Origin: Vezdaea acicularis
Lineage: Eukaryota
Direction of reading: 5' to 3'
Length of the DNA stretch: 64,000 nucleotides
Assembly (NCBI GenBank): GCA_026025075.1
Contig: JAPEUI010000004.1
Location: 62,001 to 126,000 of the forward strand
The notes under the pieces were generated by a model. That model did not search any database. It was not told the DNA's origin and was given only the letters and a program-made list of their open reading frames with translations. Below are positions 45,601 through 51,091 of the stretch, piece after piece (within the stretch, counting starts at the first letter, position 1; every line of letters begins with the position of its first letter). The position numbers and the translations under genes are program-made.

Positions 45601-47066
45601 CCAGCAGGGGACCTTAGGGCGTGGCATCGCTCTTGGCACCCGATTGGGACAGGGCTCTCGGCGCAACTGCCCAGCGCGGAGCGACTAGCGAATCCGTCCC
45701 GAAAGCAGCGACGGCAGGGGTCGGAAGGCATGTCGGACAGCGTGGGGCCTGAACGGGGAAGGCGCGCTCGGCTCGTGCGAGGACGTGCAGCAAGGCGACC
45801 GACACTTCACCGACCTTTGCGACCCCTGCCGGCACTCGCGACCGCAGGGCTGCCCGCCAAATCGACGGAGCGGCCGCGACGAAAGGGCGGAGACGCCGCG
45901 GCCTCCACCTGCACCCTCCCCGCCGATATCACCATTGTCGAGCCCCCGGCGAACCGGCGCCGTGAGGAGAGGACGATGACGGTGACGAGGTGAGGGGAGC
46001 CTGAGTATGCAGGAGGGAGAGAGCACTTGGCGCCTGGTGAGCAGCGGCCGGCCAGTCACCGCCTGCGCCGCCAAGCAGGACTGGCGCAGATGCGGTGGAA
46101 AGGAAAGAGCGAACCGCAACCACGAGCGAACGATGGCGAGAGCGAGGGAGGAGGGACGCAAGAGGGAAGGCACGACCGCGCCCACCGAAGCCATCGAACC
46201 CACGGAAGCCACACGTCTACCCCCCCCTCGTCCCCCCCTCCCCTCTCAGCGAACGGCCATGATGCCGGTCTCGCGTAGGGCGGAGGTGCAGGACAAGGGC
46301 CGCCCGGCAGGCGGGCGCTGGCTTGGGGAGGGTTCAGTAGTCGCGCTCGCTAGTGGTGGCAGGTGTCCCAGTGTGTCGCAGCACCGCGAAAAAAGACATC
46401 GGCGGGGCCTGTTGCTGCTGCGCATTTTCCCAAAATGTACGCCGTGGGAGCATGCACTGCACCACCGCATCCCACACCGCGGCGCCCAGGGCCCGGCCAG
46501 AGTGCCTCCCTCCACGATATTAATGCGTCGCCACCCCTCCGCTTCCTCATCCTCGAACTCATCCGTGACTGACGATCTCTCCCACTCGGTCATCCGTCTG
46601 CCCCACGAGAAGGAACATCAGGATCGTCTGTTGCCCGTCGTCGTTCGCTGGTTCGTCGCAGCCCCCGTACCGGCCCAAGTCCTTCCCGACCTCTCGTCGA
46701 CCGCCCTCGCACCCACGCGTAGCACGCACGACCACCTGTCTCACGCCTAAAACACTCGCTCCCGCCCACTACCCATCGGGCGACCCGAGCCATCCCTACA
46801 GAATTTATTCGGTGCCCCACGTCAAACATCTCTCCGTCTGTCTCCCTCTCCAGCAATTCGGCGGTCCATCCAACCTGGCGACCGCTCGTCATTGAAAAAG
46901 GTACGTGGACAACTCCTTTCTCCCATGCAACCCTAAGCGAATGCAGCCTTCATGCGGAACCGCGGGAAAAACATATATACTGACTCAAGCCAGGCACAGC
47001 CGTCGTCGGTCGCCTTGCCCGACCACCAGGCCACCGTCCTCACGACCCAACCAACTCGCAAGCAAC

Positions 47067-49643
47067 ATGGCTTCCCTCGACTCCCTCCACGACTTCGTCC
47101 TCTTCCCGGGCCACGAGTCGTACTCAGACATGCTTACCCAGGGCCAGCTGCAAACGGAGGCCGACTTCAATAGCCAGCAGTTCAACATGAACTCACACCT
47201 GGCTGGACAATACTCCAGCATGTCGTTCGACCCCTTCGCATCCAGCGCAACATTCTCCCAATCCATGTACCAGCCCTCCAACATCTTCTCGAACAACCCC
47301 CGGGACTCACAGAACCAATACCGCACCGGCGGCTCTCCTGCTCCTTCCGTCTCCCAGTCCTTTGAACATCCTCCTTCGATCCATTCTTCCGCGTCAGGAC
47401 CGTCGGTACCCAGTGCCTCCTCGTCGACGATCGGGTCGCCATTCTCCAGCGCCAGCCATGGACTATCGGGCCTCGAGGCGTGGAAAGATGCCCCCGTCAC
47501 CCTAGGGCCCAGCATCGTCCACTCGGACAACTTCGTCCAAGACACCTTCATGCCAGCCGGCCTGGAACATGAGCTCATCTTCCCTCGTGATAAGATCCCT
47601 AACACCTTTGTGGGTGAGTGTGCGCAAGTTCCTTCGTCAACTAGTGCTTTGAGTTCTTCTTTGTCTTCAAATGCTTCTTCTCTTTTCTCTTCGGGCCCTC
47701 ATTTGGCTGTCAACACCACCCCTCAATCGATGCCCCGTGCGAGTATCGATACCATTCTCGATCCCGAGCGTCAGTCCCTCACGCCCCACAGCGCCACATC
47801 GCCTTCCGCCTTCCAACAACGGGGGCCATGGACCCCTCCTAAGAAGGATGACCAGGTCTTCAAATCTCCTGTAACGCCTGCCTCTGCAACCCATCTATCA
47901 GTACAGCCCGCTTCCTGGTCTCAGCGAGCGCGCGAATCGCGCCGCCCATCGGTGGACAGCATTTCCCCATGGCCAACCCCATCAGAGAAGCCACTGGATG
48001 TTTCTTCTACCCGTCAAATGTCTCCTTTCTTTTCACAGAGCAGCGGCAATTATGTCGCTCCTCTAGAATCATCTTGTCGGTTTCCTTCCTACCATGCATC
48101 TAAAGACAAAAATCATCTCCTTTCTTCTCTCCTTCGTTCTCTCACTGCTACTGGAAGACCTCATACTAATGGGATGACGGTCACAGATCCTTCTCTCATC
48201 CAACCTTTCCATCAGCCACAAACTGCCCACAGCGCTATTCACGGCGGCGAGGCACAAAATTTCGTCGCATCCCACGCCGCTCTCTTCCAGCCACCTTCTC
48301 CTGCTCCTTCAGACTCGTCCTCCCATAGCCGTCGAGCCGGCTCGGCGACCATCAAAACCGGCAGCCAATCTCCATCATACCTCCACAACATGGCTTTCCA
48401 ACCATACCCAACCTTCACCGACAGGCGGCAATCGATATCATCCATTCACTCCCGATTCTCGAGCCACAGCAGTCCTCAGTCCGGTAGCTTCGATTTTGAC
48501 GAAGAAACGAAGGAGAAAGGCCGCTGCCCCGATCCCAAGTGCGGCAAAATCTTCAAAGATCTCAAAGCCCACATGCTCACACACCAGCCTGAGCGGCCCG
48601 AGAAGTGTCCGATCGTCACCTGTGACTACCATCAGAAGGGCTTCGCGAGGAAATACGATAAGAACAGGCACACCCTCACCCACTATAAAGGCACGATGGT
48701 CTGCGGGTTCTGTGCCGGCCCAGGCACCCCAAATGAGAAGAGTTTCAACCGCGCCGACGTCTTCAAGCGACATCTGACCTCCGTCCACGGTGTCGAGCAG
48801 ACCCCACCCAACAGCCGCAAGAAGCCCTCGACTGGCTCGCCATCCAACAAGAAACTCTCTGGCTACGCTCCGGATGCCACCGGCAAGTGCTCCACCTGCT
48901 CTGGCACCTTCTCCAATGCGCAAGACTTCTACGAGCATCTCGACGACTGCGTCCTTCGCATCGTTCAACAGGAAGATCCCACTGAAGCCATCAACGCGAA
49001 GCGGCTAGCCGAGCTCGACGACGACGCCGACGTCGAGGAGACGATGAAAGCTCACAACCTCTCCACCAGCCAAGACTGGTCAGCGCAAATGGGCCTCGAT
49101 GACGAAGAAGAAGACGATCTCGATGAGATCGAAGACGACCTCAACAACGACGACCCCTATGGCTCCGCCGACCGCCGCGCCAAGTCCGGCAAGGGTGCCA
49201 TCAAACCGTCCACAGCCAGCAATGGCAAGATCAACCCCCGCACTGGCGTCGTGGGCGGCTCCGCCATCAGCAAGCTCTCTCGCGCAGCAGGCGGTCGGGC
49301 GCGCGGAATGACCTTCTCGAAAGGGGGCGTCGCCCTCCTCGGCAAGGGCCGCAAGAAGCGCAAGAACTTCCCCGTCAGCTGGGGCTGTTCAGCCGACAAG
49401 ATGAAGATGAAGAAGCGCGTGCTGTGCGTGTACGACGGGTCGCGCCGGCTCTGGAAGGATGACATGATGCTTGATAATGAGTTTGAGGTCCGCCTGAAGC
49501 TAGGCGATGGCAAGAACTATATCACGGACTTGGACGTCGAGACAATGAAGAGGGCGGAAGCGTTCCATAACGCTACCGAGGAGGAGAGGGGGCCCTGGGT
49601 GCAGGGCCTGCCGGACGTCAGTCTCGAAGGTTTGATGAAGTGA
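47067..49643 (+). CDS. nsdC: C2H2/C2HC zinc-finger transcription factor, NsdC-like sexual development regulator
   Basis: CPDPKCGKIFKDLKAHMLTHQPERPEKCPIVTCDYHQKGFARKYDKNRHTLTHYKGTMVCGFC...FNRADVFKRHLTSVH and CSTCSGTFSNAQDFYEHLDDC match the recalled NsdC family. The first ATG after the 5'UTR intron is at 47067. An intron with acceptor at 48186 lies within the CDS. Confidence 0.82.
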   Translation: MASLDSLHDFVLFPGHESYSDMLTQGQLQTEADFNSQQFNMNSHLAGQYSSMSFDPFASSATFSQSMYQPSNIFSNNPRDSQNQYRTGGSPAPSVSQSFEHPPSIHSSASGPSVPSASSSTIGSPFSSASHGLSGLEAWKDAPVTLGPSIVHSDNFVQDTFMPAGLEHELIFPRDKIPNTFVGECAQVPSSTSALSSSLSSNASSLFSSGPHLAVNTTPQSMPRASIDTILDPERQSLTPHSATSPSAFQQRGPWTPPKKDDQVFKSPVTPASATHLSVQPASWSQRARESRRPSVDSISPWPTPSEKPLDVSSTRQMSPFFSQSSGNYVAPLESSCRFPSYHASKDKNHLLSSLLRSLTATGRPHTNGMTVTDPSLIQPFHQPQTAHSAIHGGEAQNFVASHAALFQPPSPAPSDSSSHSRRAGSATIKTGSQSPSYLHNMAFQPYPTFTDRRQSISSIHSRFSSHSSPQSGSFDFDEETKEKGRCPDPKCGKIFKDLKAHMLTHQPERPEKCPIVTCDYHQKGFARKYDKNRHTLTHYKGTMVCGFCAGPGTPNEKSFNRADVFKRHLTSVHGVEQTPPNSRKKPSTGSPSNKKLSGYAPDATGKCSTCSGTFSNAQDFYEHLDDCVLRIVQQEDPTEAINAKRLAELDDDADVEETMKAHNLSTSQDWSAQMGLDDEEEDDLDEIEDDLNNDDPYGSADRRAKSGKGAIKPSTASNGKINPRTGVVGGSAISKLSRAAGGRARGMTFSKGGVALLGKGRKKRKNFPVSWGCSADKMKMKKRVLCVYDGSRRLWKDDMMLDNEFEVRLKLGDGKNYITDLDVETMKRAEAFHNATEEERGPWVQGLPDVSLEGLMK

Positions 49644-49881
49644 TTCGTTCGGTCTTCTGCGAGAGTTTTTACATCTGTGACTTACTAGCGAGCGATTATT
49701 TATTTGCGATCTGTTTCAGCGACTTTTTGGAAGGGAAAGAGATACGTTTGGGAGAATCTGAGGGCCGACTTTCTTGCCTAACGTGGGCTTTTTTGTTGTG
49801 GAATGGGAAAAGGCACGAAAGGTCGGATATATATAAGATGATACCCTCTTTTTCTCTCTCGTCTTCTCTCTCTCTCTTTTC

Positions 49882-49911
49882 CATCTCATCTCATCTCATC
49901 TCATCTCATCT
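49882..49911. repeat. (CATCT)n microsatellite, about 6 copies, downstream of nsdC
   Basis: catctcatctcatctcatctcatctcatct. Confidence 0.85.
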
Positions 49912-51091
49912 TCTCGCCCTTCCTCTCTTCCCCTTTCTATTCGGGAATATCATGCTCGCGAAAAGCCCGATTCATCAAAAGCTTCACGCAATGTTCGAAA
50001 TGAAGGAGAGGGTTGGATTAGGATGGTTTATCTTTTTTGGTTTAATGCTAATTCATACTATGGCGAGGATGGAAGGAAGGGATGGTAGGAAGGAAAGCGT
50101 GCTGGTCGCGTAGATAGTTTAGGAAATGAGATTGATTCTCTGATATTTTGTCTCCTTTCTCTTGCGTGATGATCTTTATGTGTGCGGTGTGGAGGTGGGG
50201 GGGGTCCGCCCGCCTTGTGATTTTCGGGGGGTTTTGGGTGGGAAGGGGAAGAGGGTTTCCTCCTGTTATAAGATGGGCTCGTGTTATGTGGACGGAAGGA
50301 GGTGTTTTAGTTGTATGTACGGTCTTTGGGCACGTGGAGAAGTATTCTTTCATTGACATTCACGACACATTGCCCTTGTCACAGCTACTTACTCGTGACA
50401 AACCCTTGATTCCTTAAGCACGGTTCCCTTTTGCGCTGGTGAGGCTCAACGCTGAACTCTCTTTTCGTTTAGCATTCCCCGAGGTTAGAGAGTAGAGGGT
50501 GAAATCATCGCCAAAGCGAATCCTACCAAGAAAATCTATTTCGGTGAGGCGTACCTACCTCAAGCACTGACCACGTCGGCTACGGGTAGCGTCCGCTCGC
50601 TCGCAAAAGCTTGATAATCCCATCCCACAAGGGTCCACTATCCCCGAGGCTGACAACAGCAGCTTTCCGAGCAATAAACAGCGTCGGCGAGTGGGGCGTT
50701 CGGTGGCTCTTTTCTTATCAACGTGAGTATCGCTGGTCCTATGGGATGGCTTCTCGACGTGCCAATAATGCTGCGACGTGCGGGTTTTGGGGTCCTGGGA
50801 GTTAGGGCGGGGTAGGTCCTCTCCCTGCACGATGCGCGGCGCTTAACTTGGTGCTTTTGGGGGAAAGGCTCGGCGAGGCTGTGGGGCTTGAGGTTAGGAG
50901 CTTTTCTTGGGCGAAGGGCCTTTTTGTCGTTCTGGTTTCATCGATGCTCTTTGCTTCTCATCGCTCTCGATCTTGCATTTTCCATCCTCTCCCATCTTCA
51001 GTGATCTATTGAGGTTTTCCGTACGTCTCTTGTTATTGTACCGAAGTCTAGCTGCCCACTGGCTTGTAAGGGCCGATAGAAGATTGGGGGG

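Follow-up and report, generated by a model that had tools for sequence, protein, structure and literature searches.

Two competing 5' splice donors and one shared acceptor predicted in a ZfpA-type transcription factor gene of Vezdaea acicularis

The gene and its splice signals

The window analyzed here is a stretch of 64,000 nucleotides (nt) from Vezdaea acicularis (GenBank assembly GCA_026025075.1, contig JAPEUI010000004.1, positions 62,001 to 126,000 of the forward strand), and our subject is a gene at positions 47067 to 49643 of this window whose product appears to be an orthologue of ZfpA (AN1500), a C2H2 transcription factor of Aspergillus. Its reading frame is open from an ATG at 47067 to a stop codon at 49641-49643, giving 858 codons when left unspliced. 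By direct reading of the window, we found two GT donors inside this frame, both in phase 1, together with a single branch-point-like TACTAAT and a single AG acceptor (Table 1), all of them at the coordinates that the original prediction had assigned. The base before GTGAGT is G and the base before GTCGGT is T. The two candidate introns measure 573 and 111 nt, and each is a multiple of three and stop-free in the window. Translation also reproduced the three product sizes that had been claimed, namely, 667, 821, and 858 amino acids (aa), with junctions reading ..NTFV-D-PSLIQ in the 667-aa protein and ..PLESS-Y-PSLIQ in the 821-aa protein. The fungal donor consensus is GTRAGT, and the donor at 47614 is the sole match to it within the 2.6-kilobase (kb) reading frame, while the plus strand of the whole 64-kb window holds 33. 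As argued below, we consider it probable, at roughly 0.8, that these signals form a switch of two donors and one acceptor through which one ZfpA-type factor is made in a long form of 821 aa and a short form of 667 aa.

Table 1. Features of the ZfpA-type gene in the window. A slash marks an exon-intron boundary; GC is G+C content, and GC3 is G+C content at third codon positions.
Feature	Coordinates	Strand	Remarks
Exon 1, constitutive coding	47067..47613	+	M1-V182 plus the G that opens the split codon; ends ..DKIPNTFV; alignable to the N-terminal part of homologues; GC3 0.747
Donor 1, G/GTGAGT, phase 1	47614..47619	+	Inside codons GGT GAG TGT of the conserved FVGEC motif
Optional block, 462 nt, 154 codons	47614..48075	+	Coding in the predicted long isoform, spliced out in the predicted short one; motifs ..IDTIL.., FKSPVTPASA, SPFFSQSSGNYVAPLESS
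Donor 2, T/GTCGGT, phase 1, non-consensus, with conserved intron start GTYGGTTTYCCTY	48076..48088	+	
111-nt intron	48076..48186	+	In frame, stop-free; GC 0.45; read-through GC3 0.289
Branch-point-like TACTAAT	48164..48170	+	16 nt before acceptor
Shared acceptor CAG	48184..48186	+	Next AT completes Tyr (T+AT, long) or Asp (G+AT, short)
3' exon, constitutive, to stop	48187..49643	+	..PSLIQ.., zinc fingers, conserved C-terminal domain; GC3 0.733
Zinc-finger region, C487-C628 (read-through numbering)	48525..48950	+	Finger patterns by eye; columns nearly invariant in homologue alignments

The gene had previously been labeled nsdC, a name that our comparisons do not sustain. A protein search with residues 1 to 500 as the query returned 144 homologues, and the homologue counts in this report rest on the 120 of them that were listed. 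The top homologues are proteins of 740 to 907 aa from lichen-forming and other Pezizomycotina, and the only Aspergillus nidulans protein among the matches listed is AN1500.2 (P0107, 630 aa). The window protein and AN1500 share 264 of 512 residues (52%, E value 3e-150) and are collinear through the pre-finger region, the fingers, and the C-terminal domain. Read by eye, the fingers follow the patterns C-X4-C-X9-H-X3-H, C-X4-C-X15-H-X3-H, C-X2-C-X19-H-X4-H, and C-X2-C-X12-H-X3-C and span 142 aa. The local Pfam scan of the window protein gave zf-C2H2 alone, at 21.4 bits and under the cut-off of 25.2, and PF28332, a precomputed family of the homologues, was absent from that scan.

The available text of the literature on these regulators is in agreement with this assignment. 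AN1500 is there described as a C2H2 factor without paralogues (PMC8396895) and as the orthologue of Aspergillus fumigatus zfpA, with 64.79% aa identity (PMC11069582), whereas nsdC is AN4263 or Afu7g03910 (PMC8545099, PMC12306176). Like the window protein, NsdC combines several C2H2 fingers with one C2HC finger, and it is a regulator of fungal development. It differs in occupying a separate locus in the same Aspergillus genomes and, as the accessible descriptions have it, in placing two C-X2-C-X12-H-X3-H fingers and the C2HC finger within about 80 aa, in contrast to the 142 aa of the window protein. From the AN1500 match, the finger patterns, and the published orthology of AN1500 and zfpA, we may conclude that the gene is most plausibly a ZfpA/AN1500 orthologue and not nsdC, with AN4263 itself compared by description only. 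The two transcript sizes that the original prediction ascribed to A. nidulans nsdC would accordingly pertain to a different gene.

Conservation of the optional block and of its two donors

To characterize the sequence between the two donors, we aligned 18 proteins (the window protein and 17 homologues) and a broader set of 26, drawn from several classes. In both alignments residues 183 to 336 (47614-48075) line up with the conserved motifs FVGEC, TIDTIL, FKSPTTPASA, and SPFFSQSSGNFVAPLESS, and only residues 337 to 373, which correspond to the 111 nt, are unconserved between the block and PSLIQ. Eight of the 17 homologue models are spliced as PLESSY-PSLIQ, equivalent to joining 48075 to 48187 in the window; seven continue across an in-frame stretch of unrelated sequence, and two have larger gaps. 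The ratio of nonsynonymous to synonymous divergence (dN/dS) of the block, taken from six moderately diverged pairs of relatives, was 0.12, 0.24, 0.24, 0.32, 0.38, and 0.44, and an excess of third-position differences was seen in five of the six (L047/L073, L004/L014, L006/L054, L006/L008, and L060/L063; not clearly in L024/L025). Comparisons of the window with L050, L009, and L034 were uninformative, because synonymous divergence (dS) was saturated (1.2 to 3.4) or not computable, and very close pairs had too few differences. The conserved motifs and the purifying selection in relatives indicate that the 462-nt block is coding sequence, as judged from these sequences, and that the 111 nt are an intron at a conserved intron position. 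The original prediction had treated all 573 nt as a stop-free intron; the open frame stands, and the description as a plain intron does not, since 462 of these nucleotides are conserved coding sequence.

The composition of the block is distinctive at both the protein and the nucleotide level. It holds nine Ser/Thr-Pro sites in 154 aa, compared with eight in the other 667 aa, and Ser, Thr, and Pro together make up 43.5% of its residues versus 24.7% of the remainder, in line with the richness in such sites claimed earlier. The module, which looks disordered, may be a regulatory and possibly phosphorylated domain, with phosphoregulation, activation, or degradation as conceivable roles; the one AN1500 phosphosite noted from the accessible part of PMC8014999, S427, lies outside the block. 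At the nucleotide level, its GC3 of 0.487 falls between the values of the flanking exons and that of the intron (Table 1), and in 20 of 20 loci the block GC3 was lower than that of both flanking coding parts. With this low GC3, its composition leans toward that of an intron. We also observed that in several pairs the block has a lower synonymous divergence than either flanking exon (0.51 versus 0.69 and 1.07; 0.34 versus 0.73 and 1.37; 0.65 versus 1.69). The low dS and GC3 may reflect a splicing-related constraint on an alternative region.

The upstream donor is preserved at positions where the protein leaves the nucleotide free. A scan of metagenome contigs yielded 80 loci, which together with the window form 55 clusters (at least 95% identity over 270 nt of zinc-finger DNA); 35 clusters carry the long-form site, 14 carry only an uninterrupted xV-D-Pxx, and in six the site lies off the contig. 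Donor 1 is present in all 35 long-form clusters as GGT followed by GAG (32 clusters) or AAG (3 clusters), and the next base is T in 34 of them, which gives G/GTRAGT; only the L063 cluster departs from this, as it reads CAT. The Val codon just before the donor varies (GTT, GTC, GTG, ATT), so synonymous sites next to donor 1 are not frozen. As controls within the same genes, GGT was used in only 10 to 26 of 65 distinct sequences at six other invariant Gly columns, and GAG in 44 to 48 of 65 at Glu columns. At the highest control frequency of 0.40, the probability of 35 GGT codons in 35 is near 1e-14 if independence is assumed, a figure that is overstated because the lineages are related. The residue after G-E/K is also restricted: in the 84 long-type homologues it is Cys (54), Ser (15), Phe (6), Leu (5), Tyr (3), or Trp (1), and no other. 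All codons of Cys, Phe, Tyr, and Trp begin with T, as do some codons of Ser and Leu.

Donor 2 is conserved as a non-consensus site. In 22 of 22 representative genomic loci it is a GTNNGT variant (GTTGGT, GTCGGT, GTTTGT, GTTCGT, or GTGTGT) and never GTRAGT. Conservation across groups extends to the first 13 or so bases of the intron, which read GTYGGTTT(T)CCTY (48076-48088 in the window and the matching place in relatives), and a 1-nt insertion or deletion between groups shows that this conservation acts on the RNA and not on a read-through peptide. Both donors and the intron start are therefore conserved beyond the requirement of the protein. A conserved RNA hairpin masking donor 2 was considered and rejected, as RNAalifold predicted zero pairs across 20 loci. 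The branch-point-like element of relatives reads CTAAC or CTGAC and lies 17 to 24 nt before an acceptor that, in their loci, takes the shared form yAG/A[TC]CC.

The short intron could also be left in place. Its retention would give the third isoform, of 858 aa, that the original prediction had included, and which we regard as unlikely. The window intron keeps the frame and contains no stop codon; of the 35 genomic lineages, 18 have the intron in frame, 13 of them without a stop. Of the 14 representative loci from outside the lichen-type group, 12 (the window, L001, L002, L004, L006, L008, L014, L022, L047, L049, L054, and L073) have an intron whose length is a multiple of three (72, 75, 78, 81, 93, 111, or 120 nt), which is also stop-free in 8 of the 14, a hint that the read-through might be translated there. 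In the eight lichen-type relatives, which include the locus closest to the window, the intron measures 110, 124, 125, 130, 133, 133, 136, and 136 nt and is in frame in none. The intron peptide is moreover unconserved past its first few residues, where conservation is at the RNA level, and the read-through GC3 of 0.29 is far from the 0.73 to 0.75 of the exons, so that the full-retention form is left without comparative support. Of the 84 long-type gene models, 42 read through the short intron and 27 are spliced; many of the read-through models come from ena, jgi, and lgn, whose callers may ignore introns, and their number may therefore reflect ascertainment bias.

Both junctions in relatives and the weighing of explanations

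The listed homologues divide into 84 with a long-type site, 25 of the short type, and 11 with neither. The short type, ..FV-D-PSLIQ.., corresponds to joining 47613 to 48187 in the window and occurs in Aspergillus and Penicillium proteins and in some from Venturia, Teloschistes, Trypethelium, Exophiala, and Capronia. Both Tyr and Asp are thus found at the junction, not only among homologous proteins but also in two isoforms of a single species: in Cladophialophora immunda both forms are annotated, as P0063 (776 aa) and a "variant," P0119 (619 aa), which are identical except that residues 161 to 318 are replaced by a single Asp. The accessible text of the genome paper reports that alternatively spliced transcripts were predicted from RNA sequencing (RNA-seq; Trinity, PASA) for seven species (PMC5358931).

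Metagenome contigs carry both junctions as well. An uninterrupted, intron-free xV-D-Pxx was found in 16 contigs belonging to 15 clusters. The reciprocal arrangement, in which the block is kept and the short intron precisely removed (PLESS-Y-P..), is seen in L012, L024, and L074, in part in L058, and in L069, which looks alike. By comparing all contigs against each other with blastn, we found that L024 (long) and L056 (short) are 95.7% and 97.3% identical on the two sides of an exact 435-nt skip, and that L074 (long) and L036 (short) are 95.8% and 96.3% identical on the two sides of a skip of the same size. This skip runs from GTGAGT to the shared acceptor. The short members, L036 and L056, are 2.7 kb long and read CV-D-PTLIQ, while L074 and L024 are 3.1 kb long with the block present and the short intron removed, and all four have common start and end points, as expected for full-length messenger RNAs (mRNAs). 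The 69-kb genomic contig L025 still contains the 110-nt intron that is gone in L024. In a further pair, L046 (short) is 98.8% identical to L043, which has the block and a 68-nt intron. Given the lack of introns, the mRNA-like length, and the shared ends, the intron-free contigs probably represent transcripts.

It seems that these observations are best explained by one intron region with two competing phase-1 5' splice sites and with the branch point and the acceptor at 48186 in common. Use of the proximal weak donor, T/GTCGGT at 48076, would remove 111 nt and yield the long 821-aa protein, which would retain the 154-aa Ser/Thr/Pro-rich module with its motifs FKSP(T/V)TPASA and SPFFSQSSGN(F/Y)VAPLESS. 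Use of the distal consensus donor, G/GTGAGT at 47614, which lies within conserved codons, would instead remove 573 nt and yield the short 667-aa protein reading ..FV-D-PSLIQ.., an arrangement shared with the proteins of Aspergillus and Penicillium. On this evidence both donors would be used in V. acicularis, and the pairing of a strong distal donor with a proximal one maintained as weak would fit a regulated choice. The central idea of the original prediction, that alternative 5' splice-site choice adds or removes a Ser/Thr/Pro-rich module of 154 aa ahead of the fingers, is thereby strongly supported in relatives, by the junctions in contigs, by C. immunda, and by the conservation of donor 1.

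Several points weigh against this two-form explanation. The lineages are phylogenetically related, so the 35 of 35 are not 35 independent trials, and since Cys follows G-E most often (54 of 84), the conservation could partly be at the protein level. Poly(A) tails were not found on the contigs that resemble complementary DNA. The long and short pairs are 95.7 to 98.8% identical, not 100%, and may stem from sister strains or species instead of one genome, and the seven RNA-seq species may or may not include C. immunda. Finally, the use of donor 1 in V. acicularis is extrapolated from relatives with at most 63% protein identity in the best segment.

Some of these points would suit a simpler alternative, in which only the 111-nt intron is spliced here, the single product is the 821-aa protein, and the GTGAGT at 47614 is an unused by-product of the G-E-C codons. 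The block is indeed conserved coding sequence, FVGEC is a conserved peptide motif with Cys prevailing at its end, and the case for donor 1 in this organism is made from relatives. However, protein constraint cannot explain why GGT and GAG/AAG each occur in 35 of 35 clusters given that the codons of other invariant Gly and Glu residues change freely, nor why the next residue is limited to Cys, Ser, Phe, Leu, Tyr, and Trp, and donor 1 is the exact site of the short junctions that 16 contigs of relatives and the C. immunda annotation show. We therefore hold a single 821-aa product to be quite improbable. That the whole 573 nt are a constitutive intron, as in Aspergillus-type proteins, with the open block as a remnant, is highly improbable: GTGAGT is a far better match to the fungal consensus than GTCGGT, the block GC3 is well under the 0.73 to 0.75 of the exons, and 25 of the 120 listed homologues are short, but the 154 codons are open with FKSPVTPASA and SPFFSQSSGNYVAPLESS intact, the block is under purifying selection in relatives, and the intron-free contigs L012, L024, and L074 retain it.

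Known systems, evolution in Eurotiales, and further observations

The proposed two-donor switch can be set beside several known systems. The Aspergillus ZfpA proteins (A. fumigatus zfpA, A. nidulans AN1500, and Aspergillus flavus AFLA_003452) match the window protein collinearly, at 52% over 512 aa for AN1500, and their ..SFV-D-PSLIQP.. is the junction predicted from donor 1. Unlike the window gene, which keeps the block and the second donor, the ZfpA-type proteins of Aspergillus and Penicillium (626 to 707 aa) are without the 154-aa block. The C. immunda gene PV07_11371 and its "variant" are closer in form, with a long FVGEC...PLETSY-PSLIH and a short FV-D-PSLIH that are identical outside a 158-residue block; this species belongs to a different class (Eurotiomycetes, Chaetothyriales), and its event is known from database annotation alone. 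Exitron-like events of plants and animals, in which an in-frame piece of a coding exon is removed by splicing, share with the arrangement described here the GT..AG borders, the multiple-of-three length, the coding, low-complexity, and disordered-looking character of the piece, and the frame kept in both products. The difference is that the piece removed here ends in a true constitutive intron, giving two donors and one acceptor in place of an intron within an exon.

The short form of Aspergillus may itself be derived from such a system. The Aspergillus-type models P0033, P0044, and P0051 read FVGEFH.., and the two of them that were aligned, P0033 and P0051, continue with about 38 unconserved residues and then TDPSLIQ, a pattern that suggests an intron of about 110 to 114 nt starting at the same donor in Aspergillus-type genes. 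If so, Eurotiales would have fixed the short form and lost the block. In its wider version, this scenario holds that a regulated two-donor ZfpA switch is ancient, being common to the lichen-type, Leotiomycete-type, Chaetothyriales, and other Pezizomycotina sampled, and that in Eurotiales a once-coding 460-nt block, which splicing could already remove as an intron, decayed to an intron of about 110 nt beginning at the same G/GTGAGT. We put this forward tentatively and give it somewhat less than an even chance. If it is true, it would document how alternative splicing turned part of a coding exon into an intron; all functional studies of ZfpA in Aspergillus would then cover only the short half of an ancestral two-isoform system, and the long-form module (FKSPTTPASA, FFSQSSGNFVAPLESS) would be a lost regulatory input.

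The sections of the literature accessible to us connect ZfpA in Aspergillus with hyphal branching, cell-wall chitin, and the response to echinocandins and azoles. We found no description of ZfpA isoforms in literature on zfpA combined with alternative splicing or isoforms, a search that covered articles without their supplementary files; the available text of PMC10434176, PMC13042810, and PMC13744339 is silent on zfpA isoforms, and no paper was found that describes the two-form event of C. immunda. That event has so far been an unremarked database "variant," and the type of mechanism, an alternative 5' splice site with an in-frame coding extension, is itself known. What stands out is its conservation across classes in a regulator under active study in Aspergillus. 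To our knowledge, alternative splicing in fungi that is conserved across classes and produces a transcription factor in two in-frame forms has seldom been documented. Our data suggest that most other Pezizomycotina have a second, longer ZfpA form with a conserved Ser/Thr/Pro-rich module absent from Aspergillus, and public gene models of the family mix three versions: short, long spliced, and read-through. What is seen in Eurotiales could serve as a test case for the conversion of exon to intron.

A few further observations concern the rest of the gene and its surroundings. The homologue models P0003, P0006, P0008, P0010, P0012, and P0013 end soon after ..SGKG.I....S and are without the conserved C-terminal domain, probably because gene callers missed a further intron; the window has no intron at the place where these models end. 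Just upstream of the ATG, a candidate intron of the 5' untranslated region lies at 46901-46999; it has GTACGT (46901), TACTGAC as a branch-like element (46978-46984), and three AGs (46988-89, 46992-93, and 46998-99). About 240 nt past the stop codon, a short (CATCT)n microsatellite occupies 49878-49912 within a pyrimidine-rich stretch and probably belongs to the 3' untranslated region.

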